A DNA stretch of 64,000 nt from a virus (IMGVR_UViG_3300020204_002217:7508-71507); one strand, 5' to 3'. Shown: positions 1-59,050, counted from the first letter of the stretch. Numbers and translations: made by a program. The notes: generated by a model not told the origin, from the letters alone.

Positions 1-1
1 T

Positions 2-388
2 GATAACTACAGTTGCATCCTGGAAGTTGCTGGTTTGAAATCCTGCTGCTGCATGTGAAAGATGATGGTTGTGTGTTTTTACTTTGGGTGAGCCCAGGTA
101 GGCCATTGCTTCTAGTCCTAGAAGACTGCTGATTAAGAGGGGACCAAGGTCCTGTCCAGCCTGCAATTGACGAATTAATTTTAGCCACGGTTTTTCATAA
201 TAGTGAAATTCAACACTACTCCCTGTAAATTGCATTGCCTCTTCTAGTAAAGGTATACACAATTTAGCATCATGTTTAGTTTTACTATATCTTTCACTAT
301 GTCCTGCAAAAAGTATATCTCCTGTACTTGAAATTACACTAACCGCAGCATCGTGAAAGCCACAACTTATACCAAAGTGTGCATTCAT
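2..388 (-). CDS. Carbamoyltransferase, NodU/CmcH/TobZ family, N-terminal part (runs off the window; not in the ORF track)
   Basis: Manual translation from ATG at 388: MNAHFGISCGFHDAAVSVISSTGDILFAGHSERYSKTKHDAK...KTHNHHLSHAAAGFQTSNFQDATVVI. It has the family hallmarks HDAA, ERxSxxKHD, YYEKP and the HHxSH metal motif. Confidence 0.92.
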   Translation of the reverse strand, partial: MNAHFGISCGFHDAAVSVISSTGDILFAGHSERYSKTKHDAKLCIPLLEEAMQFTGSSVEFHYYEKPWLKLIRQLQAGQDLGPLLISSLLGLEAMAYLGSPKVKTHNHHLSHAAAGFQTSNFQDATVVI

Positions 389-390
389 AA

Positions 391-489
391 CTATTTATAT
401 ATGAAGGGGTCTCTTTTCCTCAACTCTTTTAACTTCTTGCGGTAAGCAATCTCCCTCTTCAACTTTTTCCACCATCGAACTAAAAACAT
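391..489 (-). CDS. Small basic 32-aa peptide MFLVRWWKKLKREIAYRKKLKELRKRDPFIYK, overprinted on the 3' end of the upstream gene
   Basis: Internal ATG at 489 of track ORF 391..579, preceded by a strong RBS (AGGAGAAAATCATG). The TAG stop lies 2 nt before the carbamoyltransferase ATG. Confidence 0.7.
   Translation of the reverse strand: MFLVRWWKKLKREIAYRKKLKELRKRDPFIYK
392..399 (-). promoter_or_regulatory. T4-type late promoter TATAAATA
   Basis: Perfect TATAAATA on the - strand, 3 nt upstream of the carbamoyltransferase ATG; gp55 is encoded in the window. Confidence 0.65.
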
Positions 490-1243
490 GATTTTCTCCT
501 GCAAATTTGTAAAGTTCTTCAGCAAATAATTCATGAGGAACTTCGTTATGATGCCAATATTTAGCTTTAGGATTTTCATATCCTAAATTCTTGTACTTCC
601 AATAAAAACACTCATCCTTATTTAGCAAGTTATAGTATCTACTTTGATCTATATGCTTAATATAATAATCAAGTAAGGTTTCTTTTTCACCTACAGTGTA
701 CATAGCATTACACATTAAGTATTCTATACCTTTTAATTTAAGATAATTTTGAAGCATTAATATACTAGTCACTGTAGCTATTTCAAGATACAATGGATTA
801 TCTGCCATAAATCTTTGCACCATTTGAAAATATTCTTTTTCTTCGTTACTATAGCTATTGTTATCGTCTCTTCCAGTACCATAATTTATATTATAGACAA
901 AATTTTGAGTTGTATCGAACCAGTCAGCAGACCTACAAATCTTTTCTCCGTCTATTTCGTAAGGTCTTACTAACTCCATTCTACCACTATCTGTCCAAGC
1001 TATTAGTACACTAAGAGTTACATAATCACTTTTAAGTTGATTATCAATCCAAGTCATAACTGATCGTGCTATACCAGCATTACTTATTGAATGATGACCT
1101 ATATTTACAGGTATTTTTCCTAACTTTCTAGCTAAACAATTGCCGAAACTGTATTGTCTATTATAAACACTATCTTGAGCGCCATTAATTTCAGCTCCGG
1201 CAATATGACTACAGCCGGCTATTAGCAATACATCTTGCGTCAT
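395..1243 (-). CDS. SGNH/GDSL hydrolase-like protein (possible sugar acyl esterase/transferase)
   Basis: N-terminal AGCSHIAG (block I Ser), NIG..SISNAGI (block II-like), IAWT..GR, and C-terminal HHNEVPHELFAE (block V His). Confidence 0.6.
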   Translation of the reverse strand: MTQDVLLIAGCSHIAGAEINGAQDSVYNRQYSFGNCLARKLGKIPVNIGHHSISNAGIARSVMTWIDNQLKSDYVTLSVLIAWTDSGRMELVRPYEIDGEKICRSADWFDTTQNFVYNINYGTGRDDNNSYSNEEKEYFQMVQRFMADNPLYLEIATVTSILMLQNYLKLKGIEYLMCNAMYTVGEKETLLDYYIKHIDQSRYYNLLNKDECFYWKYKNLGYENPKAKYWHHNEVPHELFAEELYKFAGENHVFSSMVEKVEEGDCLPQEVKRVEEKRPLHI

Positions 1244-1248
1244 ACTGC

Positions 1249-1256
1249 TACTTATA
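1249..1256 (-). promoter_or_regulatory. Late promoter variant TATAAGTA
   Basis: One mismatch to TATAAATA; 5 nt before ATG 1243; overlaps the upstream TAA stop. Confidence 0.5.
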
Positions 1257-3585
1257 CTGGAAATGCAGGTCTTTTTGTTTTTCTAACTTCAGGTACAGAA
1301 ACAATAATTTCTAACTCAGGTTTAGGCTTTACGTCTGACCTTTTAATGTCTAATACATTTACAGTAGCAAGTGACAATGCTTCTTTGGCAGTCATTGCTT
1401 CTTTTTCAGGTATTACTGTTGCTGTACTGTTGGAAACTTTAACCTCATAATTTTTATAATCGCCCCAATCGCCTTGACCTACATAATGGTTTTCAAAACT
1501 AAAATCTATACTAGCGTTTAATGCTGCTTCTTCATTTAATAAATTTGCAAAATCTTGTCCACTACGGCCCTCATCCTCACTCCACTGAGGTTTAGCTAAC
1601 TTCCTAGCACGTTTAGCAGTATTAGCTTGTATACGAGAATAGTCCTGTGCATAGAAAGGACCCTTACGTCCTTGTGGGGGAGGCAAACGATCATCAGTTG
1701 GATTATCTATTTGATTAAACTTTGTATAAAAGTCTGCTTCCCATTTACCGTCCTTATTAATTTTAAATTTGTATATTCCTGTATAGAAACATGCACCATA
1801 AGTATTACCAAATTCACGTTGGTCTATTTCAGGATTAAAATGTATTTCTGCAGTAAATCCACCTCTTACCTTCCATAACATACGCAAGAAAGTCCAAGGT
1901 TCATTTACTAAACTATTTGCATAAGGGTTATTTGGATCTACAGGGGGTATAATATTATAATCAAATTTCTCATATTGTATTTCTCTAAAATATGTAGGAT
2001 CGTCAAATTTTATTAGATAATGTTCCTTACGTAAATTATCACGTATAGGATAACTTATAGGATTATCTGTAAATCCTTTAAACATATCTAACCACATATG
2101 TATAAGTTTAACGCGAGCCATAATATGACTTCCGCCCTTAGTAAAATCGTTACTTATCCAAAAGCCCTGATACTTGTGCCATGACACATTAAATTTATGG
2201 GGATTTTGTCCTACTATAGTCTCAGGCCCTAAGCCATAACCAACACCCAGACCTGCATTATTAATATTCATGTTTCTTTGACGCCACATGAATGTCATAG
2301 TGTCTGCAAAGTCTTGATAATCTTCTGTAGGGAATCCTACAATCCAATTAGTTGCAGCCCATATTCCTACTTCTTTACCGGCTTTAAAATTATCTTCCAT
2401 TTCTTGTATAGTCACACCTTTTGCCATATCATCTAATACTTTTTGACTACCGCTTTCACAACCATAGTTAAACATTATGCAGCCGCCTTCTTTAAGGTCT
2501 TTAAAGTATTCAAGATCCATACGTCCGTCGCAACGTGCATATCCAGTCCAGTTTATTTTAAGACCTTTTGCTGCTACTGCTTTACAGAAAGCACGTAATT
2601 CTTTTAAGTTTCCATTAACAAGACTATCAATAAACCATATAATATCTGTGCCTTTATTATAGTAAAGCCATTCTACTTCTGTGACTAGGTCTACTGCTTG
2701 ACGTTGACGATACTTCCAAAAGTGAGTTTCTTCGCAAAATGTACACTTAGCTGTACATCCGCGACTAATTTCGCTGTTTACTCCATTGGGTAATTCATAT
2801 AAGCTAAAGTCAATACTTTCATAGTCTGGCATTGGTAGACCATTGATGTTTAATCTTTCATCTTCTGGTTGACTTAAAATTAATGGAGTATTTCTAATAT
2901 TACCATTTTCTGCATCTTCTAAAAGTTTTAGTAAATTAATTTCACCTTCACCTATGACAACATAATCATAATAAGGTTCAACTTTGAACCAACTCTTATG
3001 CACGTTAGGTCCACCTACTGCTATTTTGATTTCGGGCTTCCTACGTTTTAATTCTTCGCACATCCATTTGGTAGGTTCTTCGCTGATATAATATACACTG
3101 AAGCCAACTACGTCCGGATCTTTTGACAATATTTTATCTATTGTATCTGATAATATAGGTTCAAGTAAAGGATGAACATATCTTTTATAATTGTCGCCTA
3201 ACCAACGCCAGCTAGCACTAGGATCCCAAAGTCTAAATGGAATTTTTTCATTTGGACGCCAATCATCTCTATAAGCATTATAAGCAAGAACATTTAAGTC
3301 ATAAATGTTTGTTTCGTAGCCTGAACTTTTTGCTACACCGGATAGTCTTGCTAGACTAAATGGAGGCATATATGGACTCCACTCAGGACACAATACTAAA
3401 GCTAATTTCGTTTTACGTGTTTTATAATCTACATAAACGGGTGTTAGGTTTTTCTGCACTGTAGGTTTTGCATATGGCGCAATAGCATTCATCATGCTGC
3501 GATGACGTTCATCTGCAATATCCTCAGTGGGTCTTTGGTGAGGCTTTAATTCATTTACTGCTAAGTGTCTTAAGTTAAAATCCAA
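1252..3585 (-). CDS. Cobalamin-binding radical SAM enzyme (class B methyltransferase-like), 777 aa
   Basis: B12-binding-like region (PPFSLARL, VVGFSVY, IAVGGPNV, VVIGEGE), SRGCTAKCTFC CxxxCxxC motif, GCESGSQKVL, WIVGFPTE. TTG start with an AAGGAG RBS. Confidence 0.9.
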   Translation of the reverse strand: MDFNLRHLAVNELKPHQRPTEDIADERHRSMMNAIAPYAKPTVQKNLTPVYVDYKTRKTKLALVLCPEWSPYMPPFSLARLSGVAKSSGYETNIYDLNVLAYNAYRDDWRPNEKIPFRLWDPSASWRWLGDNYKRYVHPLLEPILSDTIDKILSKDPDVVGFSVYYISEEPTKWMCEELKRRKPEIKIAVGGPNVHKSWFKVEPYYDYVVIGEGEINLLKLLEDAENGNIRNTPLILSQPEDERLNINGLPMPDYESIDFSLYELPNGVNSEISRGCTAKCTFCEETHFWKYRQRQAVDLVTEVEWLYYNKGTDIIWFIDSLVNGNLKELRAFCKAVAAKGLKINWTGYARCDGRMDLEYFKDLKEGGCIMFNYGCESGSQKVLDDMAKGVTIQEMEDNFKAGKEVGIWAATNWIVGFPTEDYQDFADTMTFMWRQRNMNINNAGLGVGYGLGPETIVGQNPHKFNVSWHKYQGFWISNDFTKGGSHIMARVKLIHMWLDMFKGFTDNPISYPIRDNLRKEHYLIKFDDPTYFREIQYEKFDYNIIPPVDPNNPYANSLVNEPWTFLRMLWKVRGGFTAEIHFNPEIDQREFGNTYGACFYTGIYKFKINKDGKWEADFYTKFNQIDNPTDDRLPPPQGRKGPFYAQDYSRIQANTAKRARKLAKPQWSEDEGRSGQDFANLLNEEAALNASIDFSFENHYVGQGDWGDYKNYEVKVSNSTATVIPEKEAMTAKEALSLATVNVLDIKRSDVKPKPELEIIVSVPEVRKTKRPAFPV

Positions 3586-3604
3586 TTTGTGTATACTCCT
3601 TACT

Positions 3605-3611
3605 TATTTAG
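3605..3611 (-). promoter_or_regulatory. Late promoter-like CTAAATA
   Basis: Overlaps the TAA stop of 3608..4264 and is followed by AAGGAG and the TTG start. Confidence 0.45.
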
Positions 3612-4264
3612 ATTTTAGCAAAGAAGCCGCGTAAACTTTTTGTAAAGCCTTCAGTCGCTTTTATAAAATCATGTTGTAATTTATAGTGAATTATGGCCCT
3701 TTTTCCAATAATACGTGTGGTTTCATGATAAAATCCAGATACTCTTGCTACATGATTATAGGTTTCTTCATTTTCGTCATTATTTTCAATAACAAGCACA
3801 TCAGCAGTAAGAGGTAATGCAGGTCTTATATGTTCTAAATATTGGTTCAGCATATTTTGTTTATCGGTTACTGCTTCAGGAATAGTAATAACTATTAGAT
3901 CATAATTTTTCTTTGGTATATCCACAGGGTATTTACATACTACTGTATCTACGTGATATGGTATATAATGATTAAAAGATATTTGTTTTAAGTAACTACA
4001 TTTTTGAGAACTATCATCACAAAATGTTATTTTATTTGTAACTCCTAATCCTAATAATTCAAAGCCTATCTCACCCATATTAGAATTAATTATTAATGTG
4101 TTAAGATAAAATCTATGATATATAGTTCCTATAAACTCTATTAGTTCAGGAATTATATCATAATGTTCATAAACCTTTTCATTTGGTTCGTAAAGTATGA
4201 TATTGCTATGAAGAAAAATTCTTCCCTTATCTGGGTCGTCTAAAGCTGTTTTTGAGTTTATCAT
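3608..4264 (-). CDS. Degenerate class I SAM methyltransferase-like protein
   Basis: LIINSNMGEIGFELL (eroded motif I), ITFCDD, YDLIVITIP (motif IV-like). Confidence 0.45.
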   Translation of the reverse strand: MINSKTALDDPDKGRIFLHSNIILYEPNEKVYEHYDIIPELIEFIGTIYHRFYLNTLIINSNMGEIGFELLGLGVTNKITFCDDSSQKCSYLKQISFNHYIPYHVDTVVCKYPVDIPKKNYDLIVITIPEAVTDKQNMLNQYLEHIRPALPLTADVLVIENNDENEETYNHVARVSGFYHETTRIIGKRAIIHYKLQHDFIKATEGFTKSLRGFFAKI

Positions 4265-4265
4265 A

Positions 4266-6551
4266 TTAATTTAAAAAAGTCGTATCTACCTTATAGTTAT
4301 TATTTTCCTTAAAAAATAGCATATGATTGTATTCAACTATGGGTTTAACATTTTTATAAAAATCTAACCATTGTGTTGTATAGGTTAGCAATCTTTTAAT
4401 TTCTTTATATACTGCTTCCAAACGTAAATCATCATCTTCTATTTGATCATAATTTTCATCAATAAATGGACTAAAAGTTTTGTACCCTAAATTATGTAGT
4501 TCCTTTAAAATAGTGGGTTTTCCTAAAATTATAAAAGGATGTTTCATAGCAATAGCTTTATAAGTTTTTTCACTTATAAAAACAGTATCATCTCTTCCAT
4601 TTGTGTAAAAGTCTGTTTCAGTAATTATACTAAAACTACTTGATTTAAAGTATTTAAAATCGTCTGGAAGTATATCTACTGGATTGGGTCGTTCTGGTGT
4701 AATGTTTAACCTTAAAGGTAAATCTTTTTTAAATTTACGTATGTTTGAACACATAGGAGAATTTATAGTTGTAATTAAAAATTGTTTATCTCCCTCAAAT
4801 GAGACATGTCCCATATGTACTATACTGTCTCTATACATATTATCCAATAACTTTATTCTATGCAACCTAGGCACTTTGTTAAAACATAAAAAATTCTTTT
4901 CTCTAAATGTAAGTTCATAATCTCCAGTAAACTCTACATTTTTATATTTTTTTCTAGTAGCATGATGAAAGTAATTCGTACAAACTATAGTAATGTACCT
5001 TTCTATATTATACTTAATACATAAATTTCTATACAAAGATTTCTGAACGCTTGCGCCAGTTAATAACACAAAATGTGCCGAATCAATTTTATGTGCTACT
5101 AGACTATGAATTCTATGAATTTTTAAGACTATTGACTCCAATAGTGTTTCAGAACAACAATCAAATATAATTCTATTTTTGCCGTTATCTATAGCTTGTA
5201 TAATTTCCTCTACGACATCCTCAGTTGGTCGTAACCTAAATGTACACATAGGCGCTATATCCGCAGGGATTATATGCGCTCTATGTAAACTTGATCCTAT
5301 TTCTGGAATAAACAGAATTATTTGATCTAGTCTATCTCTAAATTCTTTTTCTGTTAGTTTATGCTTTTTTTTAGGACGTGTATCACCATAGTGAATTATC
5401 TCACCAGTATGATTTCTATGATTTAACTTACGCCATGGGTCAATAACAACTGTATGTTGCGGAAAATTAAGTTTTTCTGTATAGTCGTCCCAATACCCTA
5501 TTAAGTAAACGTCTGTCCAATCTTCATGCAGTTCATAATCCTCGGTGTTAGGATCATAATATCTAACGTAACCACCGTGTAACATTATGTAATGACCTAT
5601 TAATAAGCTATTACTACCCTGAGTATAATGAACTTTTGGTTTATAGGCTTTGCCAACTATTGTGATTTTTTTACCATTTTTTAAACAGCGCAAGGCCATA
5701 TTTTCTGCTTGCACTTCTCTTGCCTTCATAATACTATCAAATAGATCATAACCCAAATTTAAACGATCTGCTAAAAATCTAAGTGCAATATTATCTCTAG
5801 GATGACAAGCTCCGGCATCACCTAGTCCTGCTTTCATATATGCTGGACCCATGATACGGTGTGTAGATTTAGCAAGAGCGTTTGTCACAACATCCACATT
5901 CATGTTTCCATTAAATTCAGCAACGTCTTGTATCATGTTGACTAAAGCTAATTTTGTACTAATAAAAGTATTGTAAAAAATCTTAATAGCTTCAGCTTCA
6001 TCCCAAGTACCTACTTCATATCGAGGCTCATTCTGCATAAAAACCTTGTAAAAATCTATAAGTTCTTTTGCGTCGCCTGTTAAACTACCATCTTCTGTTC
6101 CAATGATAACCATTTCAGGATTAACCATATCCCATTTTATAGTGCCCATTGCTATTAAATATGGATTGTAAATAAAACGTGCTTTAGTTATACATGGACG
6201 TAATAGAGTTCGTGTGGTACCTGGTAATACTGTGCTAATTAAAACTACAAGTTGGTGAGATTTGGCATGTAAATTAACTTCACGTAATATATTAATTACC
6301 GGAGTATAATCAAAGTCTTTGTTAGGGAGATGACTAGTAGGAGTTTCTCCTCCATACATGTCTTCGTGTGGTGTAGGAGCTGCTATAAAAATTATGTTTC
6401 TGTCTGCTATAGCATCCTGAATACTGTCTTTCATAACAAACCCAGGACTTCTGGGCAAAATATCGTAACCTACTACATCATAATGTTGAGCCATTACTTC
6501 AGCGCAATCTTTACCCAATTTTCCAACACCTATCATTGCTACTTTCTTCAT
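4266..6551 (-). CDS. UDP-glucose/GDP-mannose dehydrogenase fused to a GT10-like (fucosyltransferase-like) domain
   Basis: GVGKLG Rossmann motif, FIAAPTP, STVLPGT, EAIKIFYNTF, catalytic GACHPRD, GKAYKP. The C-terminal ~370 aa carry FSIITET..ISEKTYKAIAMKHPFIILG. Confidence 0.88.
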   Translation of the reverse strand: MKKVAMIGVGKLGKDCAEVMAQHYDVVGYDILPRSPGFVMKDSIQDAIADRNIIFIAAPTPHEDMYGGETPTSHLPNKDFDYTPVINILREVNLHAKSHQLVVLISTVLPGTTRTLLRPCITKARFIYNPYLIAMGTIKWDMVNPEMVIIGTEDGSLTGDAKELIDFYKVFMQNEPRYEVGTWDEAEAIKIFYNTFISTKLALVNMIQDVAEFNGNMNVDVVTNALAKSTHRIMGPAYMKAGLGDAGACHPRDNIALRFLADRLNLGYDLFDSIMKAREVQAENMALRCLKNGKKITIVGKAYKPKVHYTQGSNSLLIGHYIMLHGGYVRYYDPNTEDYELHEDWTDVYLIGYWDDYTEKLNFPQHTVVIDPWRKLNHRNHTGEIIHYGDTRPKKKHKLTEKEFRDRLDQIILFIPEIGSSLHRAHIIPADIAPMCTFRLRPTEDVVEEIIQAIDNGKNRIIFDCCSETLLESIVLKIHRIHSLVAHKIDSAHFVLLTGASVQKSLYRNLCIKYNIERYITIVCTNYFHHATRKKYKNVEFTGDYELTFREKNFLCFNKVPRLHRIKLLDNMYRDSIVHMGHVSFEGDKQFLITTINSPMCSNIRKFKKDLPLRLNITPERPNPVDILPDDFKYFKSSSFSIITETDFYTNGRDDTVFISEKTYKAIAMKHPFIILGKPTILKELHNLGYKTFSPFIDENYDQIEDDDLRLEAVYKEIKRLLTYTTQWLDFYKNVKPIVEYNHMLFFKENNNYKVDTTFLN

Positions 6552-6558
6552 AGTTGAT

Positions 6559-6565
6559 TATTTAG
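6559..6565 (-). promoter_or_regulatory. Late promoter-like CTAAATA
   Basis: Overlaps the TAA stop at 6562; 7 nt before ATG 6551; no Shine-Dalgarno. Confidence 0.45.
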
Positions 6566-7560
6566 TTAGTCATTGCTTGACGTAGAAATTGCTTATATCT
6601 GTAATCTACATCGTAAAAATCACTATTATCTACTTTTAACTCTTTTATACGACATTGTATTATTTGTGGAATATATGTAATGTCATGAATTATTTCTAAA
6701 GCTCTATTATAATTATGTAGAATTTTAGGATAAAGCTTATTATATAATAACTTTAAATTTTCATTTTTAATATTATGTAGATTAAGTACTAATTGTTTAG
6801 CTCTATCATCTAAAACTACATTACTGTCAAATTTGTAATCAATTATTTCATCATATAGCTCAAAGCCTAGGTGTTTAAGATATTGATAATAATTGGGCAA
6901 ACTTAATACCACAAAAGGCTTTTTGAGCAAGATAGGCACTATAGTTTTTTCAGTTATGAACGGGACACTATCTGTAGCTTCGCCTACAACCTGCATGAAA
7001 CTTTTATGTTGTTGTTTACAGAAAAAGAAACTATCTTGAAGTTGATAAAAGTCATCCCCTACTGATCTGTAACTGTTGTCATAATGTTTAAATTTATAAT
7101 GAGTGTTAATATAAGGAAATCTATTCCATGAAACAACACCTATATCTAATAGACCTTGCTCACTTATATTGTCTATTAAGGCGCAACGATGATCATGTGA
7201 TTTATTGTTTAAATTAATAAAAGGATAATCAAATTGGTCATATTTTACACTATCATAATCTATAGTATTACGTAGTAACATTTCGCCCCAATTAAACCAA
7301 AAACTATACCAATGTATTAATGTTATTTCTATTTTATCGCTTTCATAATATTTATAAAAGTCGTGATTAAAAGATGAAAATATATACGTAATTTTTCTTA
7401 CACCCTTATTAAAAAGATCATCATAAAAATTATCGTTTATTGCCCAAAACCATTCTGTATCAGTATTAATTATTATATGGGAGGCAGTTGCGTTTTCAAT
7501 AATATAATTATTATTATCGCCCCGCTGGTTGAAAAACCATTTTACTTCTTTGTGAGCCAT
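6562..7560 (-). CDS. GT10-like glycosyltransferase-related protein
   Basis: LNNKSHDHR, QVVGEA..FITEKTIVPILLKKPFVV..LKHLGFELYDEIIDYKFD. Paralogous to the C-terminus of 4266..6551 and to 12188..13588. Confidence 0.6.
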   Translation of the reverse strand: MAHKEVKWFFNQRGDNNNYIIENATASHIIINTDTEWFWAINDNFYDDLFNKGVRKITYIFSSFNHDFYKYYESDKIEITLIHWYSFWFNWGEMLLRNTIDYDSVKYDQFDYPFINLNNKSHDHRCALIDNISEQGLLDIGVVSWNRFPYINTHYKFKHYDNSYRSVGDDFYQLQDSFFFCKQQHKSFMQVVGEATDSVPFITEKTIVPILLKKPFVVLSLPNYYQYLKHLGFELYDEIIDYKFDSNVVLDDRAKQLVLNLHNIKNENLKLLYNKLYPKILHNYNRALEIIHDITYIPQIIQCRIKELKVDNSDFYDVDYRYKQFLRQAMTN

Positions 7561-11217: not shown

Positions 11218-11219
11218 GA

Positions 11220-13588: not shown

Positions 13589-13594
13589 AAGATT

Positions 13595-13602
13595 TATTTA
13601 TG
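13595..13602 (-). promoter_or_regulatory. Late promoter-like CATAAATA
   Basis: Overlaps the TAA stop at 13598; 6 nt before ATG 13588. Confidence 0.5.
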
Positions 13603-14566: not shown

Positions 14567-15822
14567 TCGAACACCTCTTTAAGTTCGGGAACTATTTCTT
14601 CTAACTTTTCGTCACGAAATTTGTCTAATTCTTCATTAAACTGTATAAACTCTTGAACGCCACCTTTGTTTTCATCACCTACAGTTAGATTATAGATAAT
14701 CATTTTGAAACCATTATAAATGTCTTGATTATCTTTATATTTGTTTTGATATACACGATATAATTCTGCTAATCTACGCTTAACATGTGTTGGCATAATC
14801 ATTATATTACTATACCAAGGATTTGTAGCTAAATTAAAGCGCGGGCTTGATTTAGTATCAATGAAGCCACTTTCAATCATATAATCAAAAAAGTCCGGGA
14901 AAGTAAACACGTTCCACATGCTTATGGTTGGAGTAATCTGAAATTCAGCATGTGGAACTTGCTTTTTAACAGTTCGAATGTTTGCTTCAATGCGTGACCA
15001 ATCGGTACCCTTACGGATACATTCTGCTACTTTCCCGTGTGCGTCAAGACTGGCCCATATTTTAAGTTTAGGAAACTTCTTCCAATATTCAATTAAATCA
15101 ACACCTTTTTTATATTTTAATGAACTAAAGTTAGTGGTGTATGTTAATTCAACTTGATCTGTAAGGCCGTTAGCTATCCAATAGTCTAAGCACTCATAAT
15201 GCTCTGGAGTGATGATAATTTCACCTCCTGCAAAATATACTTCTGTTACGTCTTTTAGATGAGGCTTTAATTTTTTCATAAAATCGCCGCCATCGTTGTT
15301 GTTAATAACAACTTTATTTGTTTTAAAATACTGTTGATAAATTTCTGGGCCGCGTTCTTCCATAAACTCTTGTGCCCATTGGCTTGAGCAGCTAGGTCCA
15401 CAACTACGGCATTTCATATTACATAGATTACTAAAACGTATATCCATGTATTTCATTTCAAATTCTTTTAAACTTCCATCTTTGTTTGTATTTTCGCTTA
15501 TGTAGTTTACATATTCTAAACCTTTACGTTTATTATGACTTTGACGCATAGTCCATGTGCCCATAAGTTCAAGATCATAACAACGCTTACAAGCCTCTAC
15601 AGGCTCGTCATTCATCATAGCTAAACGTAATTTCTTATAATCAGGAGTATTCATCATATCAATTATTTCTTGATTACTCTTAATTTCTGAGACTGGCATG
15701 TTACTGTCAGCCACACAACAAGGAAGTACACGCTTATCTGGCCATGCATGAAAGTGTACCCATGGCAGTACACAAAAGTACTTGCCGTGTTTAACAAGGT
15801 TTTCTGTTTCTATTTTATCCAT
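14551..15822 (-). CDS. Radical SAM enzyme with an N-terminal twitch Fe-S domain
   Basis: CVLPWVH..PCC..CKRCY precedes DIRFSNLCNMKCRSC, YFAGGE, YTTN, ASLD. Confidence 0.9.
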   Translation of the reverse strand: MDKIETENLVKHGKYFCVLPWVHFHAWPDKRVLPCCVADSNMPVSEIKSNQEIIDMMNTPDYKKLRLAMMNDEPVEACKRCYDLELMGTWTMRQSHNKRKGLEYVNYISENTNKDGSLKEFEMKYMDIRFSNLCNMKCRSCGPSCSSQWAQEFMEERGPEIYQQYFKTNKVVINNNDGGDFMKKLKPHLKDVTEVYFAGGEIIITPEHYECLDYWIANGLTDQVELTYTTNFSSLKYKKGVDLIEYWKKFPKLKIWASLDAHGKVAECIRKGTDWSRIEANIRTVKKQVPHAEFQITPTISMWNVFTFPDFFDYMIESGFIDTKSSPRFNLATNPWYSNIMIMPTHVKRRLAELYRVYQNKYKDNQDIYNGFKMIIYNLTVGDENKGGVQEFIQFNEELDKFRDEKLEEIVPELKEVFDWARS

Positions 15823-15824
15823 TT

Positions 15825-17063
15825 TTACTCCAACAAATCTTGCAAACTATTTAATTCAGGGAACGTTTTCCAGAAACTTTCATCACGTATTCTATCAATA
15901 CTTCCTGTATGCATTAAGAACTTTTCTTTATTTGCAGCCCAAGTATCACGCTCCTTAGCAAAATTAATAGCATCTAGTACAAGTCTAGGTAAACAAGTCT
16001 TATCATTTGTATTAGCCTCACTCCACGCTAACGCTTTACGCTCTGCTTCAACTTTTAATGCTTTTGGCAAACTAGTAGCACTATAATAACTAGGATGAAC
16101 CGCCAAATATAAACTATGATACCAATCTTCTTCACGTATAATATTTTTACTTTTTAAGTAGCTATAAAACTCACTTAATGTAAGATAATTATAGATACTG
16201 AAAACAGTATTCATTTGAAATACTATATAATCCAAATTACGGAAAGTTAATAGATTGCTTTCCACCTTTCCCCAATCTGTCCCCTTACGCATGTATTCTG
16301 CACGTTCACCATAGTGATCAATACTACAGCTTAATTCAATTTTTTTAAAATGTTTCCATAAATCTAAAACATCATGATTTTTATAACGTATATTACTTGA
16401 ATTAGTATTGTACCTTAAAGTAATATTGGTACGCCCTAATCGTATCATTTCTTCAAGTATGGTATAATGTTCATCAGTAATTAATGGCTCACCACCTGCA
16501 AAGTATGCCAGATCAATATGTTCTACATGAGTGAGTACTTCTTTTAATAAATCTCCCTTTTCATCGTCGGCGTGAATTAGTATAGGATGTTTAGGATCAT
16601 AGTTTTTATTCATTTCTAGACCCCATTGACTGCTAAACTCACTTCCGCACGTTCTGCATTTAAAATTGCAAATATTACTGAAACGTATGTCAAAATAGCG
16701 CATTTTAAATTCGTCCACAGTACCGTCTTCTTTTGTACTAGGTACGACTTCATCATAGTACTTGCCAAAATGCTCTTTACTATAGTTTCTAAAACTATGC
16801 GGACCTGCTTCTTCATGTTTATAACAAAAATCACAAATTTTATTCTTACGTTCATTAAGCATGTCCAATCGTAATTCTTTCATCTTAGTACTATTAAATG
16901 CTTGTTCAAGTGTAATTTCTTTAGTGTTTCCAAAAGGTTGTGTATAGTCATTACTACAGCAAGGGTAAATATCTCCTTTAGGAGTAACATTAAGATGTAG
17001 CCATGGGAACATGCAAAATGTTTTACTTTCGTTTAATAAAAATTGTTTATTCATACTGGCCAA
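15825..17063 (-). CDS. Radical SAM enzyme with an N-terminal twitch Fe-S domain
   Basis: CMFPWLH..PCC..CDFCY; DIRFSNICNFKCRTC; YFAGGEP; YNTN; CSID. Confidence 0.9.
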   Translation of the reverse strand: MASMNKQFLLNESKTFCMFPWLHLNVTPKGDIYPCCSNDYTQPFGNTKEITLEQAFNSTKMKELRLDMLNERKNKICDFCYKHEEAGPHSFRNYSKEHFGKYYDEVVPSTKEDGTVDEFKMRYFDIRFSNICNFKCRTCGSEFSSQWGLEMNKNYDPKHPILIHADDEKGDLLKEVLTHVEHIDLAYFAGGEPLITDEHYTILEEMIRLGRTNITLRYNTNSSNIRYKNHDVLDLWKHFKKIELSCSIDHYGERAEYMRKGTDWGKVESNLLTFRNLDYIVFQMNTVFSIYNYLTLSEFYSYLKSKNIIREEDWYHSLYLAVHPSYYSATSLPKALKVEAERKALAWSEANTNDKTCLPRLVLDAINFAKERDTWAANKEKFLMHTGSIDRIRDESFWKTFPELNSLQDLLE

Positions 17064-18322
17064 AATTTTCTTTTGTCTATGTTTATTAATCCACGTAATT
17101 CAGGAAAAACACTTTCAAATTTTTCCCCGCGTATCTTATCTAATCGTTCTATCTCAGCTTTAAAATAATGTCCATGAGTTTCCCAAGTATTTTGACTATC
17201 AGCCCAAATATGAGTTCTTTCAAGTTGCTCTATCTTTTGTTCTTGGAAAGCCTTTGTTTTCATTAATTCAATTACTTTGTTTACGCTTTGTTTACCCTTT
17301 TCTTTATATTCCTGCGGTAGTACATGGCAAGCAATATGGAAAGGAGTGCTAGCACAATATAGTGTATAAACTCTATCTTTAATTGTATACATTTTGTTAT
17401 CTATTAGATATTGATAAAATTCTGCAATACTTAGGTAATTGAATGCACTTAATACTGTGTTTATTTGCAACACAAGATTTTTTTGTTTTTTTATAGTATG
17501 GAAGTTTGTTTCTACAACTCCCCAATCAGTACCATGTCTTATATACTCTGCTCTTTTACCAAAGTGATCTATACTTGCGTAAATGTTTATGTCGTGTGTA
17601 AAATAACTCCAAAGTTTAAGCAAATCTTTATTCTTAAATTTTAAGTTGCTTAAATTAGTATTATAACGTAACTTGATATTGGTTTTATTTTTACGTATCA
17701 TTTCTTCAAGCATAATATAATGCTCTTCAGTAATCAATGGCTCGCCGCCTGCAAAATAGGCCATCTCCATAAATTCTACTTGATCTAATACATCTTGTAA
17801 AAACTGCTTACTATCGTTTTTTGGAATTTGCCTTGCATAGGTAAGATTGCTTTTTATATCCTCTTGTTCCCATTGTGTACTAAATTCAGCTCCGCATGTT
17901 CTACATTTAAAGTTGCAAATATTACTAAAGCGGATATCAAAATATTTCATTTCAAATTTAGACAACGAGCCGTCGTCCAAATCAGTATATGCCATTACAT
18001 TATCAAACAAATGAAGCCATTCTGCATTAGCATATTGTCTCGAACTCTTTATACCCTGTTCTTCGTGTTGATAACAATTAGTGCATTCGTTATTCTTTTT
18101 GCCAGCTAGCATATCTAATCTAAGCTGCTTCATTTTTTCACTATTAACAAGTTCTAAAAGTGAATTTCTCCTTGGATCGCCAACTCCTGTAGTTGTTGTG
18201 CAACTTTGTGCTATACAACAAGGAGCAGCTACACTTGCAGGAGTAGTATGTAAATGAACCCAAGGGTACATACAAAAAGTTTCGCTTTTTTCAAGCATCA
18301 AATGTTGTAGTACATTTTTCAT
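17051..18322 (-). CDS. Radical SAM enzyme with an N-terminal twitch Fe-S domain
   Basis: CMYPWVH..PCC..CTNCY; DIRFSNICNFKCRTC; YFAGGEP; ASID. Confidence 0.9.
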   Translation of the reverse strand: MKNVLQHLMLEKSETFCMYPWVHLHTTPASVAAPCCIAQSCTTTTGVGDPRRNSLLELVNSEKMKQLRLDMLAGKKNNECTNCYQHEEQGIKSSRQYANAEWLHLFDNVMAYTDLDDGSLSKFEMKYFDIRFSNICNFKCRTCGAEFSTQWEQEDIKSNLTYARQIPKNDSKQFLQDVLDQVEFMEMAYFAGGEPLITEEHYIMLEEMIRKNKTNIKLRYNTNLSNLKFKNKDLLKLWSYFTHDINIYASIDHFGKRAEYIRHGTDWGVVETNFHTIKKQKNLVLQINTVLSAFNYLSIAEFYQYLIDNKMYTIKDRVYTLYCASTPFHIACHVLPQEYKEKGKQSVNKVIELMKTKAFQEQKIEQLERTHIWADSQNTWETHGHYFKAEIERLDKIRGEKFESVFPELRGLINIDKRKFWPV

Positions 18323-19725
18323 AGTGGATGTAATCTATTAGTTTCTTGGCATAATCTATAAAAACTTAATAATTCTGGGAAGATGCTTAACATGTCAGTT
18401 TCACGCCGCTCATCTAGTTCATTAAACCAATTGTAGAAATCTCTACGGCCCTCTACTAATTTATCTTCTTCGTAAACTGTATCTTTCATATAATCCACAA
18501 CACGTTTAAATCTCTCAAATTCTAAAGAGCTAAACTTTTGTCCAGATTTATCGTCTACGTTTTGTTTCATAAAATCTAGGGCATCTTCCATATATGGCAT
18601 AAACTCTATTTTAGGTAACAAGTTCATATCATACTGAATAGGTTCTCTAAGATAAGGAGTATCAAATCTAACACGATGCTGAGGATTTAGTGGATCATCA
18701 TACCAATCATATATACTACGCCATTTTAATATTTTTTCAAGAAGTAATTTAAAAGATGTAACACTGAAAAGGTTGAAAGTTATCATAAAAGTCACAGGGC
18801 TATTAGTAATACTCAAATAAGTATGTAAATTTTTTTCCCACAGTTCAATATCAAGACCAGTACGATTATACTCTGCCCTTGGTCCCCAAGTATCTATACT
18901 TGAAAACAGTTTAAAAGTGCGTATTTTACCTTCATCTACGAGTTTGCGCACACTCTTAGACATCTTTTCAACAAGTGCTGTTTTGGTTCCAAGATTGCTA
19001 TTAATGTTTAGTTCGAGCCAAGGCATAGGATCTTTATCAATTTCATCAAGTACTTGATATGTACTTCTATGCATAGTTGGTTCACCGCCAGTAATGCGCA
19101 TAATGTTTAGTGTCTTGCGTAGTTCAGGCCACCATTTCCAAAATGCATCAACATATGGATTTTCTTCTTCACGTTGATATAGTTTCATCCAGTCAATATC
19201 GCAGCGATGGTTTTTAACACTTGTTACTGGACCATGTTCTTTAATTTCTTGATAGAAACGTGTGCTGTATTTAGGATGACAATAGCCACATTTAAAATTA
19301 CATTCGTTACCGAAATTAATTTCAAGATATTCTGGATTTATATTTTGATTCCAAGGGCCAAATGCTGTTTGATTATATCTTTCTTCAGTAAAGATGCTTG
19401 CATTACGCTGATGTCTATCACTAATATAGTCTGGACCCATAGCTTCAATATTCCAACAATACTGACATCCTTCAGGTTTTTGACCTTCAAGCATCATTTT
19501 TCTTTCATGCTTTTTTTCGTCAGTATTATGCAATGCGCTAGGATTATCTACTAACTCACTTAAAGGAATTTTATGCGGTCGGGGATGATAACAGGAGTGT
19601 GTCTCACCACTTTGTAAGTACATAGTTACATGATGCCATTTGGCTAAACAAAAAGTAGGACCTACTTCGTTCTCTACTTTTATTTTTATATCTTTAATTC
19701 TTTGTATTTCGTAACTCATCACCAA
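18319..19725 (-). CDS. Radical SAM enzyme with an N-terminal twitch-like domain (divergent member)
   Basis: CLAKWHH..HSCYHP..CQYCW; EINFGNECNFKCGYC; ITGGEPT; SSIDTWG. Confidence 0.88.
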   Translation of the reverse strand: MVMSYEIQRIKDIKIKVENEVGPTFCLAKWHHVTMYLQSGETHSCYHPRPHKIPLSELVDNPSALHNTDEKKHERKMMLEGQKPEGCQYCWNIEAMGPDYISDRHQRNASIFTEERYNQTAFGPWNQNINPEYLEINFGNECNFKCGYCHPKYSTRFYQEIKEHGPVTSVKNHRCDIDWMKLYQREEENPYVDAFWKWWPELRKTLNIMRITGGEPTMHRSTYQVLDEIDKDPMPWLELNINSNLGTKTALVEKMSKSVRKLVDEGKIRTFKLFSSIDTWGPRAEYNRTGLDIELWEKNLHTYLSITNSPVTFMITFNLFSVTSFKLLLEKILKWRSIYDWYDDPLNPQHRVRFDTPYLREPIQYDMNLLPKIEFMPYMEDALDFMKQNVDDKSGQKFSSLEFERFKRVVDYMKDTVYEEDKLVEGRRDFYNWFNELDERRETDMLSIFPELLSFYRLCQETNRLHPL

Positions 19726-20681
19726 CCTTCAATCTTTCTTATTACATCCATCTCACGAACTAGTGGACCTTGATTATGTTTGTCTGCGTTATAATGTCTT
19801 TTAAAAAATTTACTTGTTGCTTTGTCTAACGTACAAGTTGGAAGACTTAGCTTATCTTGTAATGGCACTCCAAGCATTGTTGCTTCTTTGAATGGATCTT
19901 TATCTTTATGTTGTTCCCAAAGAATAGGAAAATTATCAAACCACATAACATTTGTATAATCCCAATCTGTAAGCATAGTCATATAGGTTCCTAATCTTGC
20001 ACCGTAAATTGCCCATATACCATTATCAACATCAGATCCTACATTATGCCAAATAGTTAGATTATTTAAATTTCTACTTGCTACGCGCTCAACAAAATCA
20101 TCTACACTTGTTTTAGCACCTTTGTCAAGGACCATTTTTACTCCTTCACGAAACCCTGCACGCCATGCTTGAAAAGGAGTATGGTTGGGATAGGTGGTAC
20201 TATAGCAGTCGTACATAGCCCAATATAAATTGTCCTGACTATCCATACAAAAGTCTACTTGAGTAGCATGACTACCGTCACTAGTTTCATGAGTTTTCAT
20301 GTTTAGGACATATTCTTTAGTCCAACTACTCATGCCACCATTGCCATAACGTAATCCATTTATATTATTAATAGCTTTCCATCTAAATTGCGCACGTTTA
20401 AAATTTGGTTCAAGGTTAGTAAAGTTTAATGTAAGATTGAAAAAATCTTCTTGCGGCATATTGTCGCCATCAATAAGTATAAATCGTGGCGTGTCACTAG
20501 CCTCTGCTGCTGCCTTATGTGCAGCGTCACTACCCTTTACGCCATCAATTCGTTTGGCGTATGGTATCATATTTTTTATTTGAAGCCAAAATTCTTCTTT
20601 TTGTGGCTCGTCGTAACTTAAGTAAATACAGTCTAAATCTGCAACATCTACAATATCATCCGTTAAGTTCATAAGTTTCAA
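19719..20681 (-). CDS. Glycosyltransferase-like (GT-A fold) protein
   Basis: YLSYDEP, RIDGVKG..AHKAAA, FILIDGDN (DxD), YGNGG, AWRAGFREGVK. Confidence 0.6.
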   Translation of the reverse strand: MKLMNLTDDIVDVADLDCIYLSYDEPQKEEFWLQIKNMIPYAKRIDGVKGSDAAHKAAAEASDTPRFILIDGDNMPQEDFFNLTLNFTNLEPNFKRAQFRWKAINNINGLRYGNGGMSSWTKEYVLNMKTHETSDGSHATQVDFCMDSQDNLYWAMYDCYSTTYPNHTPFQAWRAGFREGVKMVLDKGAKTSVDDFVERVASRNLNNLTIWHNVGSDVDNGIWAIYGARLGTYMTMLTDWDYTNVMWFDNFPILWEQHKDKDPFKEATMLGVPLQDKLSLPTCTLDKATSKFFKRHYNADKHNQGPLVREMDVIRKIEGW

Positions 20682-21027
20682 GCTTCCATTTAGTAGTTTT
20701 TAATTTAGTATTAGGTGCTACTATTATACTGATATCTTCCTCAGCACACAATACTCCTTCATTGCTATTGGGCATTAATTTGCATACTATAAAGTTTGGA
20801 TTAACTGTACTGATTTTTCCATCAATTACTCTTAAGTCTGGTCTGCCTTCAGCATAAGTTCTTGCATCAATAACAATATAATTACCATCTAGTTTTTCAC
20901 TAGTATAGCAAACTACCTTACCTGCATCGTCATAATATAAACGGAACTCAGGAACCTCAATTTTCGGAGCTTCAAATAAAGTTATATAAATTGTTTCTTC
21001 AGTCATATACATCCAATTTGTCAGCAA
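20656..21027 (-). CDS. Hypothetical protein (start may be the ATG near 21005)
   Basis: 123-aa ORF that tightly fills the operon; no recognised motif. Confidence 0.6.
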   Translation of the reverse strand: MLTNWMYMTEETIYITLFEAPKIEVPEFRLYYDDAGKVVCYTSEKLDGNYIVIDARTYAEGRPDLRVIDGKISTVNPNFIVCKLMPNSNEGVLCAEEDISIIVAPNTKLKTTKWKLETYELNG

Positions 21028-21793
21028 AGTTCTTTATGTAATAATGAAAGGGATACTGTTGCGGATAAGTATTTATCCTAATTGAATTTTTATGTATTTC
21101 ATAAATTAACGTATCTGTCCAGTTTTCAGTAGGTAATCCATTAATCCATTGTTTCATATGTATCATAGACATTTCATTAAAACTTTTAAGTGTAGTTTTA
21201 TTTTCACCTATAATATGACATGCTATAGCGTATGTCCAATCAGTGCTAACTTCTTCGTCAGGATTACATTTTAAAATTTCTTTCCATTCTTTCCAATTAT
21301 CAAAAACATTTCTTACAATTTTAAAAAACTGTTCTGCTACATTAGATTTTTTGAAATAAGTTAAACTATTATAAACGTTTGGTAATCTATTTTCTTCGAT
21401 AAATTTTCTATAAAATTTACTTTCGCTTATTTCTTGCTTAAAATTTCTTATTGTAGATGATACTACAATGTCCTGTATTTCCAAAACTTCCCACCAATAT
21501 TCAATACTTTTTGGTATGAAAATATCTGCTTCAATTTTTATTGTTTGATCATATGGACTAGCTTCATAAACTTGCCAGTCATTTATTAACTTCCATTTAC
21601 CTGTAGGATCTAAATCACCGTAGGGAAGTTTTATTACTTTATCAAATACTTTTGACTTAAATGTTTCACTTGTAACTAGACTTACGCTTTGATCCGGCAT
21701 AGTCCTTTTAATACTTTTAGCCAAAACTTCCGCACATTTGATATAATTAACATCAATGGTGTTTTGAGCAAGTATTACAAACCCTTTTGTCAT
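20999..21793 (-). CDS. Nucleotide-diphospho-sugar transferase-like protein
   Basis: GFVILA..Y..CA..LA.SIK, FDKVI, YEASPYDQTIKIEADI (DxD-like). Confidence 0.65.
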   Translation of the reverse strand: MTKGFVILAQNTIDVNYIKCAEVLAKSIKRTMPDQSVSLVTSETFKSKVFDKVIKLPYGDLDPTGKWKLINDWQVYEASPYDQTIKIEADIFIPKSIEYWWEVLEIQDIVVSSTIRNFKQEISESKFYRKFIEENRLPNVYNSLTYFKKSNVAEQFFKIVRNVFDNWKEWKEILKCNPDEEVSTDWTYAIACHIIGENKTTLKSFNEMSMIHMKQWINGLPTENWTDTLIYEIHKNSIRINTYPQQYPFHYYIKNFADKLDVYD

Positions 21794-22593
21794 TTAATTA
21801 ACTCTACAAATATGTCTTTATTCATTACGTGAAAGTCCATGTCTTTGATATTAATATATTCTTTACGAATTTTTCCTTTCTTCCAATTATCAAACATTAC
21901 AGTATATTCTGTATTATAAGGATAGTCGTTGTCACGGTATATGCTAGTATTTCTACCTATGTGTAATAAATTCCAAGGTATAATATCTTTTGGCAGTATT
22001 ATATGACCATTCACAATTCGCAACGCTAAGGTTAATGCATAATCGTTTCTGTAGGTACCCGCAATAAAATTATGTATATTAGCATAATGGTCAAAGTTTT
22101 TTTGTATCATTTCTAAGCAATTAAAAATAAATTTAGCCCTGTTAGTTTTTCTGAATGTAACTACAGTTGCCCATAAGGTATTATAACTATACACGCTTAA
22201 GGCTTCTTGTGTAGCAGCAGGATGCATTAAAAATGATGTAGTATCATGACAACAGAAGTCATCATAAAAATCAAAAGTTTTTAGCAATTTGGTTGAATTA
22301 ACCATATAATCTACATCTAATAATAAAGTTTCATCATAAGGACTTAATTCATAAGCTTGATATCTACCTTTATTGATCCAAACTCCCCAGTCACGTTTGT
22401 TGTTTTTGTCTGGTTCTACTGTAATTACTTCATCAAAACTATAGTTTGAGTTGGTAGATAAACTCTCTTTGTCAGTTACCAGAGTTACTGGTAAATTTAA
22501 AAAATGATTTATTCTCTGAGCAGTATATTCTGCCATTGAGTAATAATTATATTTTGGGCTATTAAATGCGAAAAGTATCGCGCCGCGCGTCAT
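21790..22593 (-). CDS. Nucleotide-diphospho-sugar transferase-like protein (paralogue of 20999..21793)
   Basis: GAILFAFN, FDEVI, YELSPYDETLLLDVDY (DxD), YRNDYA. Confidence 0.68.
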   Translation of the reverse strand: MTRGAILFAFNSPKYNYYSMAEYTAQRINHFLNLPVTLVTDKESLSTNSNYSFDEVITVEPDKNNKRDWGVWINKGRYQAYELSPYDETLLLDVDYMVNSTKLLKTFDFYDDFCCHDTTSFLMHPAATQEALSVYSYNTLWATVVTFRKTNRAKFIFNCLEMIQKNFDHYANIHNFIAGTYRNDYALTLALRIVNGHIILPKDIIPWNLLHIGRNTSIYRDNDYPYNTEYTVMFDNWKKGKIRKEYINIKDMDFHVMNKDIFVELIK

Positions 22594-22895
22594 CGTTTAG
22601 CCTCTAACTCTTTCCATTCTTTATGATACTCTTTCATAGTATCAGCATATAATTTCTTAAGTGTATCTAACAGCTCCTTCCTATCTACTTCAATAGGAGT
22701 GTCGTAGAAATCTTTAAGTATCATTTTTTTAGTAGAAAAGAGTGACAAGAAATTTATAGTTTGCTCATTAGCTAACCATAATCCTTGCTGTGTGGCTATT
22801 TGAAATTTATTTTTATATTTTTCACGCAAATAATCTTGCGCTGCTTTATGTGCAAAACGTGCTTTTGCTTCAGTTATTAACCTTTTAGTGTCCAT
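22590..22895 (-). CDS. Hypothetical helical protein, first gene of the biosynthetic cluster
   Basis: 101 aa, AAGGAG RBS, preceded by a late-promoter-like box. Confidence 0.7.
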   Translation of the reverse strand: MDTKRLITEAKARFAHKAAQDYLREKYKNKFQIATQQGLWLANEQTINFLSLFSTKKMILKDFYDTPIEVDRKELLDTLKKLYADTMKEYHKEWKELEAKR

Positions 22896-22911
22896 GACTA
22901 CTCCTTGCGAG

Positions 22912-22918
22912 TATTTAG
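22912..22918 (-). promoter_or_regulatory. Late promoter-like CTAAATA at the head of the GT/radical SAM cluster
   Basis: TCTAAATACTCGCAAGGAGTAGTCATG on the - strand, in the intergenic gap. Confidence 0.55.
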
Positions 22919-22944
22919 ATGGACGACTTAAATGCTAAAAATTA

Positions 22945-50838: not shown

Positions 50839-50846
50839 TATTTATT
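50839..50846 (-). promoter_or_regulatory. Late promoter-like AATAAATA
   Basis: 6 nt before the gp25 ATG; no Shine-Dalgarno. Confidence 0.45.
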
Positions 50847-58994: not shown

Positions 58995-59023
58995 TTGACA
59001 CTTTATACAGGGTCGTGTATCAT
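58995..59023 (+). promoter_or_regulatory. Sigma70-type early/middle promoter TTGACA-N17-TATCAT
   Basis: TTGACA at 58995-59000, 17-nt spacer, TATCAT at 59018-59023, then a GAGGA RBS before ATG 59051. Confidence 0.75.
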
Positions 59024-59050
59024 TTTTACAACAAAATTATAAGAGGAACT

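Follow-up and report, generated by a model that had tools for sequence, protein, structure and literature searches.

A fibre-linked block of sugar and radical SAM genes in a jumbo-phage lineage: a candidate late pathway for virion decoration

The window analyzed here is a 64,000-base stretch of viral DNA (IMGVR_UViG_3300020204_002217:7508-71507), the last 64,000 bases of a 71,507-base viral contig (L001), and it carries downstream of its tail-fibre genes a block of 24 co-oriented genes that runs for ~30 kb from position 22895 past the window start. Its jumbo-phage lineage is abundant and uncultured, and the block is new in combining a conserved set of seven radical S-adenosylmethionine (SAM) enzymes with a GDP-mannose 3,5-epimerase (GME) homologue and a giant repeat protein. 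We tentatively read it as a pathway that acts late and in the cytoplasm to make a glycan for a virion component, such as the neighbouring fibres or some other part of the surface, a possibility that we hold somewhat short of probable; the late timing, sugar substrates for the radical SAM enzymes and the virion as target are what we infer from the gene content and its setting.

Enzyme families of the block

Twenty-one open reading frames (ORFs) of 101-777 amino acids (aa) occupy positions 2..22895 of the window, all on the minus strand, as are all sizeable ORFs from 58909 down to base 1 and all features given below unless a plus sign is shown. Genes overlap at 11 of 21 block junctions (the junction to the fibre gene included) and coding density is ~100%. 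The block reaches 6.8-7.5 kb beyond window base 1 on the contig, where the remainder of a carbamoyltransferase gene is followed by the gene for a repeat protein of 1898 aa and then, before the contig ends, by an ORF of 74 aa that is excluded from the block count. An earlier reading made without searches (the sequence-only reading) had described about 20 co-oriented, often overlapping genes downstream of tail and fibre genes, and this layout agrees with it.

All seven radical SAM proteins of the block keep the CX3CX2C motif. Four are tandem paralogues with an N-terminal twitch domain (N-twitch), at 18319-19725, 17051-18322, 15825-17063 and 14551-15822, and they match NF033640 over its full length with 301.9, 360.5, 369.2 and 356.3 bits, respectively, against a cut-off of 170. 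Their pairwise identity is 23-43%, and the N-terminal cysteines C17, C36, C77 and C80, a set suited to an auxiliary cluster, are invariant in 10 aligned sequences that include them. Five twitch/SPASM enzymes had been counted from the sequence; the fifth, a 322-aa protein with a Cys-rich C-terminus at 13598-14566, is a radical SAM protein (CNYQCSYC at residue 25; Radical_SAM 27.6 bits, slightly under the Pfam cut-off of 29.5) in which no twitch domain was detected and which, at 33.6 bits to NF033640, is not a member of that family. The two proposed B12 radical SAM enzymes, a 646-aa class B, methyltransferase-like protein at 7542-9482 and a 777-aa protein at 1252-3585, were confirmed as such, with the Pfam B12-binding and Radical_SAM domains both over cut-off in each.

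Two sugar-nucleotide enzymes and a carbamoyltransferase named in the sequence-only reading also held up. The GME homologue, 323 aa at 11220-12191, aligns with the solved GME 2c59 over residues 3-317 (phmmer E 2.3e-89, 303 bits), whereas the next-best family, UDP-glucuronate decarboxylase, reaches 91 bits only; Pfam Epimerase matches at E 8.7e-44, and the GxxGxxG and YxxxK motifs are present. A 761-aa fusion at 4266-6551 joins a predicted nucleotide-sugar dehydrogenase (residues 1-390) to a glycosyltransferase (GT) domain of GT-B-like type (450-746). Its UDPG_MGDP_dh N-terminal and central domains are over the Pfam cut-off (51.8 and 52.9 bits), phrog_9148 UDP-glucose dehydrogenase matches at E 2.6e-94, and a Cys stands at the usual position within a GACHPRD motif; the dehydrogenase C-terminal Pfam domain scores 18 against a cut-off of 30 and TIGR03026 141.7 against 189.8. 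The carbamoyltransferase, of NodU/CmcH type, is 493 aa long at L001:6414-7895, with its N-terminal 129 aa at window 2..388, and the full gene scores over cut-off for both domains (Carbam_trans_N 113.7 against 24 bits, Carbam_trans_C 167 against 27) and matches phrog_1601 at E 4.5e-93; it is 67-70% identical in five of five large relatives.

Among the GT-like proteins, the 466-aa product of 12188-13588 is modelled as a GT-B fold glycosyltransferase (AlphaFold2 pLDDT 85, pTM 0.84). Foldseek searches of the PDB with this model gave 32 matches at E<=1e-3 with TM 0.25-0.40, and those listed are all GT-B proteins, including OtsA, LmbT, BshA, GtfA, TarM and glycogen synthase. Residues 450-746 of the dehydrogenase fusion are paralogous to it (BLAST E 2.5e-21), and a 332-aa protein at 6562-7560 is a distant GT-B-family paralogue by BLASTP only (E 7e-7 to residues 554-702 of the fusion, E 0.003 to 12188-13588). 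The block is thus predicted to hold three GT-B-like domains, one by its structural model and two by paralogy. These take the place of three GT10-like proteins proposed earlier: with no Pfam match at E<=0.01 and no fucosyltransferase among the listed Foldseek matches, a GT10 fucosyltransferase identity found no support, and the TEK-containing motif seen by eye is a resemblance only.

Candidate GT-A transferases of GT8-like type are encoded at 21790-22593 (267 aa, with D93-x-D95 invariant within the family) and 20999-21793 (264 aa; phrog_1903, no assigned function), the former being an N-terminal paralogue of the latter (E 1.6e-7). A profile of 20999-21793 reaches glycogenin at E 0.1, and a merged profile of the two families (32 sequences) does so at E 0.005 over positions 4-104, the nucleotide-binding half, with glycogenins as the first 19 of the 20 matches listed. 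A third candidate GT-A-like protein, 320 aa at 19719-20681, has an invariant D71-G-D73 and an AlphaFold2 model (pLDDT 70) whose listed PDB matches are mostly nucleotide-diphospho-sugar (GT-A type) transferases such as B4GalT7, PBCV-1 A64R and GtrB. In a viral library it returned two significant matches, both uncharacterised phage proteins, followed by weak GT25, GT2 and GT8 matches, and its Atlas neighbours are auto-named GT2-like. For a 284-aa protein at 10363-11217 there is a faint Glyco_transf_34 match (E 0.0053, 17 bits, cut-off 23) and no PDB match; family profiles of 21790, 19719 and 12188 found nothing meaningful among PDB sequences.

The block closes with the 1898-aa protein (L001:708-6404), which is built of 18 tandem repeats of ~65 aa with the aromatic-rich consensus FDFSWxPDPxxPPYIYxFGTQW...GPxYxVxGAxExKY and has, at its C-terminus, a GT-A-like domain shared with 19719-20681. 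The repeats have no Pfam, PHROG or PDB relative (best PDB profile E 0.13) and no usable Atlas match, and derivation of the repeat from the 19719-like domain was rejected at an hhalign probability of 0.09%. At E<=1e-3, 3865 of 8000 candidates scored are related to its C-terminal 509 aa; the 120 listed carry no Pfam domain and are nearly all unnamed or "hypothetical".

Conservation and transcription

Relatives were collected by scanning viral contigs with one N-twitch protein, which gave 126 stretches, 80 of which were kept as loci at 57-83% identity; homologues were counted over loci with enough flank and had to lie on the expected side and strand. The radical SAM genes 18319-19725 and 13598-14566 have homologues in 74/75 and 68/68 loci, and the GT-A-like candidates 19719-20681, 21790-22593 and 20999-21793 in 70/72, 58/69 and 58/71. 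Near them, a 123-aa protein at 20656-21027 and a 101-aa protein at 22590-22895 recur in 52/72 and 51/69. Further along, counts are 42/63 for 12188-13588, 41/61 for the GME homologue and 36/59 for a gene at 9442-10362, and no homologue of 10363-11217 or 3608-4264 was found in any of the 80 loci. These counts indicate that the middle of the block is variable and that its head and radical SAM core are not. In 47 of 61 loci the fibre gene 23919-25160 has an upstream homologue in the same orientation; conservation of the cluster beside tail genes had been named as a check in the sequence-only reading. Two complete genomes (361-364 kb) preserve the full order from fibres to repeat protein, and metagenomic relatives whose records carry terminal repeats have this size. 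The first GT-like protein alone has 2409 relatives at E<=1e-3, so the lineage is common, and DNA of the phage is present in lake-water metagenome runs.

Megablast of positions 1-23000 against 50,697 phage records gave zero matches, and among those records only Ralstonia phage RsoM2USA (MG752970) has the GT-like genes. There, a fibre-like ORF355 is followed by ORF353 (21790-like), ORF352 (20999-like), ORF350, ORF349 (N-twitch) and ORF348, a second 19719-like gene; identities are 27-32% for the 21790/20999 homologues, 38.5% for ORF350 against 19719 and 35% for the N-twitch ORF349. At a second locus, ORF199-202, a further N-twitch gene has a carbamoyltransferase (46%) close by. The set is far smaller than the block and divided over two loci, and B12 radical SAM, GME and dehydrogenase genes were not seen in the two stretches compared. 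In the accessible text of the report on this phage (PMC8504454), the mini-block is just downstream of the tail sheath gene ORF359, whose product was detected in virions by mass spectrometry, and the module genes are annotated as hypothetical and not discussed, with "radical SAM" and "carbamoyl" occurring 0 times each. As RsoM2USA is cultured and carries the core module, the function of the block can be addressed at the bench.

The first block gene is preceded by a 49-nt spacer (22896..22944) with the box TCTAAATAC (5' base 22918), then AGGAG and ATG. TAAATA stands before this gene in 44/44 distinct homologue upstreams, always as TCTAAATAC followed by a short spacer, AGGAG and ATG, and before the fibre gene 23919-25160, which has a GATAAATAA box in the window, in 39/39. 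Six late-promoter-like boxes had been read in the block from the sequence alone; besides the one at 22918, conservation extends to a CTAAATA box at 6565, 14 nt upstream of 4266-6551 (kept in 10/14 upstreams), and to a box at 3611 before 1252-3585, TCTAAATAAG..AGGAG (12/17 distinct homologue upstreams). Boxes at 13601 and 9492 were rejected as unconserved (0/2 and 5/24, the latter being the count for TAAATA before 7542-9482). Before six internal genes TAAATA is rare, with 0-3 occurrences in 32-59 upstreams each (1/48, 0/51, 0/59 and 0/34, for example). Across starts, ATAAATA within <=45 nt was observed 6 times against 0.36 expected, 3 of these in the block.

A gp55-like late sigma factor is encoded at 59015-59947 (+) (phrog_12791 "sigma factor for late transcription", E 8.5e-74) and is the likely reader of the TAAATA boxes. 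Together, the conserved TAAATA and this sigma factor support late, structural-class transcription, and judging from these sequence features the block would be transcribed late. In positions 1-20000, sigma-70-like sites (101 against 103 expected) and terminator-like sites (10 against 7.9) are at chance; a weak hairpin with a T-run at 22965-22948 ends the fibre gene upstream, and such sites are no commoner than chance. Most block genes are without a Shine-Dalgarno sequence and start right after A/T-rich junctions, and the TAAATA-box genes have a strong AGGAG.

Candidate product and target

In the pathway that we propose, sugar donors would come from the GME homologue (GDP-L-galactose or GDP-L-gulose) and the nucleotide-sugar dehydrogenase (uronic acid), and three GT-B-like and three or four GT-A-like transferases would assemble an oligosaccharide. 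The two B12 radical SAM enzymes would C-methylate it, the four N-twitch enzymes and the short radical SAM enzyme would carry out radical chemistry of an unspecified kind, and O-carbamoylation would be accompanied by acyl or ester editing by two SGNH-like proteins, the product being placed on a virion component made concurrently. A bolder version, in which a radical-SAM-tailored glycan (C-methylated and carbamoylated, with L-galactose or L-gulose and uronic acid) sits on the virion, the N-twitch enzymes are a new carbohydrate-modifying class and the 1898-aa protein serves as scaffold or ruler, we regard as somewhat unlikely.

Hydropathy scans bear on where such a product could go. No Kyte-Doolittle 19-residue window of >=1.6 was found in 29 proteins tested, 24 of them from the block, so a flippase, a polymerase and an initiating or membrane transferase would all be missing from the block, and this speaks against self-sufficient synthesis of a surface polysaccharide. 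A pathway that leans on the host is a different matter: the block could feed unusual nucleotide sugars and soluble transferases into host lipid-linked machinery for the O-chain of lipopolysaccharide or for capsule, remodelling the envelope, for instance, to block superinfection or to keep progeny off debris. Published work interprets the "host recognition cluster" of pelagimyophages in this way; in that region, as far as the available text goes, fibre genes are followed by GTs (GT8 commonest), a UDP-glucose 6-dehydrogenase and radical SAM cassettes, function is untested and the authors favoured modification of the host O-chain (PMC7029224). The resemblance of 20999 and 21790 to GT8 is in keeping with it, as is the wide occurrence of the same type of carbamoyltransferase, whose family counts 143 phage records, mostly cyanomyophages and pelagiphages. 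We nonetheless judge envelope remodelling unlikely: no phosphoglycosyl transferase, flippase, polymerase or any other membrane protein is seen among the 24 block proteins, a late-type box leaves scant time for surface turnover, and the core is shared by phages of probably different hosts (lake-water relatives and a Ralstonia phage).

A cytoplasmic, membrane-free enzyme set would fit hypermodification of the phage's DNA with a tailored glycan as well, and phage GTs are reported (Pyle et al. 2024) to be able to assemble DNA modifications made of several sugars. Each of four large relatives (4/4), however, has a sole PF00303 (thymidylate synthase family) gene, the one examined encoding a canonical ThyA (equivalog 336.8 against a cut-off of 327), and no hydroxymethylase or hydroxymethyl-pyrimidine route to DNA glycosylation was found among the PF00303 genes of these four. 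The block also lies within the structural module behind a late-type box, whereas T4-type DNA glucosyltransferases are early genes. DNA as target accordingly has only a very slight likelihood in our view. The soluble proteins, ThyA, the linkage to fibres and the late-type box together favour a virion part as the target; the sequence-only preference for a target other than DNA thus finds indirect support, in the lack of membrane segments in 24 proteins and the canonical ThyA.

The nearest named relatives of the radical SAM enzymes may point in another direction. Peptide maturases (ApyD, RiPP C-methyltransferases, PapB, YhhB and DynA) make up many of the nearest NCBIfam models for the B12 enzymes and several of the low-scoring models for the twitch enzymes, all far under cut-off, ApyD being the best model for 1252-3585 at 101 bits against 750. 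The block could therefore be a composite whose radical SAM enzymes, either alone or together with the transferases, modify protein post-translationally in the manner of SPASM/twitch and B12 radical SAM peptide maturases, the substrate being the tail fibres or the huge repeat protein, without a known family, that ends the block. The bacterial members of NF033640 (95 relatives, chiefly from metagenome-assembled genomes of Bdellovibrionota and Bacteroidota) add to this case. They form arrays of up to 6 that hold no sugar genes, and the 133 ORFs beside them are heterogeneous (Radical_SAM 12, TPR_2 5), the 25 commonest Pfam families including no GT family. In the block, no gene resembling a precursor peptide and no recognition domain was detected, the GT-A-like domain at the end of the 1898-aa protein suggests an enzyme rather than a substrate, and nucleotide-sugar and radical SAM genes are interleaved in all relatives whose order was compared. 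We consider protein modification distinctly unlikely. No characterised member of NF033640 was found.

Some bacterial N-twitch loci have features of their own. Four bacterial contigs (L105, L111, L168 and L123), from Bdellovibrionota-type genomes, carry arrays of 4-6 copies, often on alternating strands, and in L123 a single 1106-aa ORF comprises two N-twitch copies and a linker that is TPR-like by eye. L113 and L121 encode 643-649-aa N-twitch forms with an extra C-terminal domain of ~230 aa; in the 643-aa form this extension looked GT2-like by eye, an identity that was rejected, because SPASM and Radical_SAM are the only Pfam domains of its sole relative and the PDB gave no match.

Twitch enzymes, B12 C-methylases, a carbamoyltransferase and GTs in one block recall the tailoring of aminoglycosides and Nod factors, and the sequence-only reading had drawn parallels to BtrN, GenK/GenD1 and TobZ. 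A diffusible small molecule of aminoglycoside- or nucleoside-like type, acting on the host or on competitors, would be in keeping with this. The resemblance holds at the level of broad superfamilies shared with BtrN, GenK/GenD1 and TobZ/NodU (twitch, class B radical SAM and carbamoyltransferase), and the twitch domain of BtrN is C-terminal, whereas that of the block enzymes is N-terminal. No protein reaches a BtrN-, GenK-, AprD4- or NodU-type equivalog cut-off: the AprD4 model scores 28-32 bits against 500, the carbamoyltransferase 124.8 against 1000 for NodU, and 7542-9482 is nearest to KedN5 at 252.3 against 700. Pfam/HMM and hydropathy scans showed no aminotransferase, cyclitol synthase or exporter, and a small molecule would leave the tight linkage to fibres without explanation, all of which makes it very unlikely.

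Several results weigh against a virion glycan, in addition to the published preference for the host O-chain. Assignments to GT-A in the block are weak, with a best E of 0.005: no GT Pfam family is matched by any of the 32 members of the 21790/20999 set at E<=1 (0/32), and the fold matches of 19719-20681 reach a best E of 0.025, with none at 1e-3. Of the four GT-A proteins claimed from the sequence, what stands is these weak glycogenin and fold matches, and the larger claim of a block for sugar-nucleotide synthesis, glycosyl transfer and tailoring is borne out by enzyme families, indirectly, and is softest at its GT-A calls. The lack of GT families among the commonest ones beside bacterial N-twitch genes leaves a sugar substrate for the N-twitch enzymes unsupported. 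As for timing, exact TATAAATA, the T4 late promoter, is not enriched (8 observed against 20 expected) and the boxes lie only 9-26 nt from start codons; the late expression and late boxes proposed earlier draw on the conserved TAAATA, shared with the fibre gene, and the gp55-like sigma factor, as indirect support, and not on the exact motif.

Known systems and other genes

Our literature search found no paper describing this block. The sequence-only statement that no phage pathway of comparable complexity was known is nevertheless too strong, because fibre-linked sugar and radical SAM regions of pelagimyophages had already been described (PMC7029224, in the text available). As far as that text goes, the pelagimyophage cluster and the hypervariable region of cyanomyophages are, like the block, large regions of T4-like myoviruses with sugar genes after tail-fibre genes. 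The block differs in belonging to a jumbo phage of 330-364 kb nearer the RaK2/Atu_ph07 group, in having a strongly conserved rather than hypervariable core (its head and its radical SAM genes recur in 58-74 of 69-75 loci), and in adding four N-twitch and two B12 radical SAM enzymes, the GME homologue and the 1898-aa protein. Moraphages, an aquatic jumbo lineage of up to 307 kb, have four core GT groups, and radical SAM goes unmentioned in the portion of the source available (PMC12619734).

Virion glycosylation of the kind proposed here has a precedent in mycobacteriophages, where phage GTs glycosylate the C-termini of capsid and tail-tube subunits (Freeman et al. 2023, as covered in the available part of PMC12619734). 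We liken the block to this mechanism by description only. The mycobacteriophage systems have only a few GT genes and are not known to include tailoring enzymes of the sugar-nucleotide or radical SAM kind. If the block does decorate virions, phage glycobiology would grow from such few-gene systems to a 24-gene pathway, and the N-twitch radical SAM family, with thousands of environmental relatives, would gain its first functional context. In the bolder version given above, bacterial viruses would have their first known example of a virion glycan tailored by radical SAM enzymes. Were the host surface the target, the block would be an unusually large case of phage-driven envelope remodelling.

Two proteins of the block had been called SGNH-like, and this rests on motifs read by eye. 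The 306-aa protein at 9442-10362 has block I GCSWTQG and block V DGAHP and no Pfam or NCBIfam match; the 282-aa protein at 395-1243 has an N-terminal AGCSH, a DUF6071 match under the cut-off (E 0.003) and homologues of ~41% identity in G001 and G002. In two relatives, the tblastn spans homologous to 9442-10362 (L025:15756-16664 and L009:15808-16707) contain two in-frame stop codons, which could reflect gene decay or a misjoined alignment. An MTase-like label for the 218-aa protein at 3608-4264 was not upheld, no family, HMM or PDB match being found. The 101-aa product of 22590-22895, the first gene behind the conserved box, has no Pfam or PHROG match, and the 123-aa product of 20656-21027 no family match.

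Block genes also occur on contigs binned as bacterial: L117 and L175 (Haliscomenobacter), L135 and L136 (Rickettsiales), L099 (Flavobacteriaceae), and also L176 and L177. The 19719 homologue is ~60% identical in L117 and L175 and 48% in L135 and L136, the carbamoyltransferase ~62% in L117, L175, L176 and L177, and an N-twitch gene 75% in L099. These are probably phage contigs, and as a pointer to a Bacteroidota host they are ambiguous.

Upstream of the block lie two tail-fibre-like genes, at 22945-23904 and, with a C-terminal intramolecular-chaperone domain (Peptidase_G2 IMC, E 5.3e-7), at 23919-25160, which match phrog_14394 virion structural protein. A T4-type baseplate module follows, with a gp6-like protein at 46941-50333 (phrog_10646, E 1.2e-251), a gp25-like protein at 50383-50832 and a hub/lysozyme-like protein at 50845-54537; the nearest isolates for the gp6-like protein are the jumbo myoviruses Phosso, Atu_ph07, RaK2 and 121Q, at ~32% identity. 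Besides the gp55-like sigma factor, a divergent plus-strand unit at 59015-63772 encodes nuclease subunits that are SbcD- and SbcC-like. It also holds the eighth radical SAM gene (62765-63772 (+)), for whose product the nearest models are SPASM-type maturases far under cut-off, and a perfect TATAAATA stands at 58934 (+), just upstream of the sigma gene. Between the fibre genes and the gp6-like gene, a single ORF of 6983 aa (25988-46939), scanned as three pieces, gave a weak FG-GAP_2 Pfam match only (E 2.3e-5); its product would rank among the largest phage proteins.

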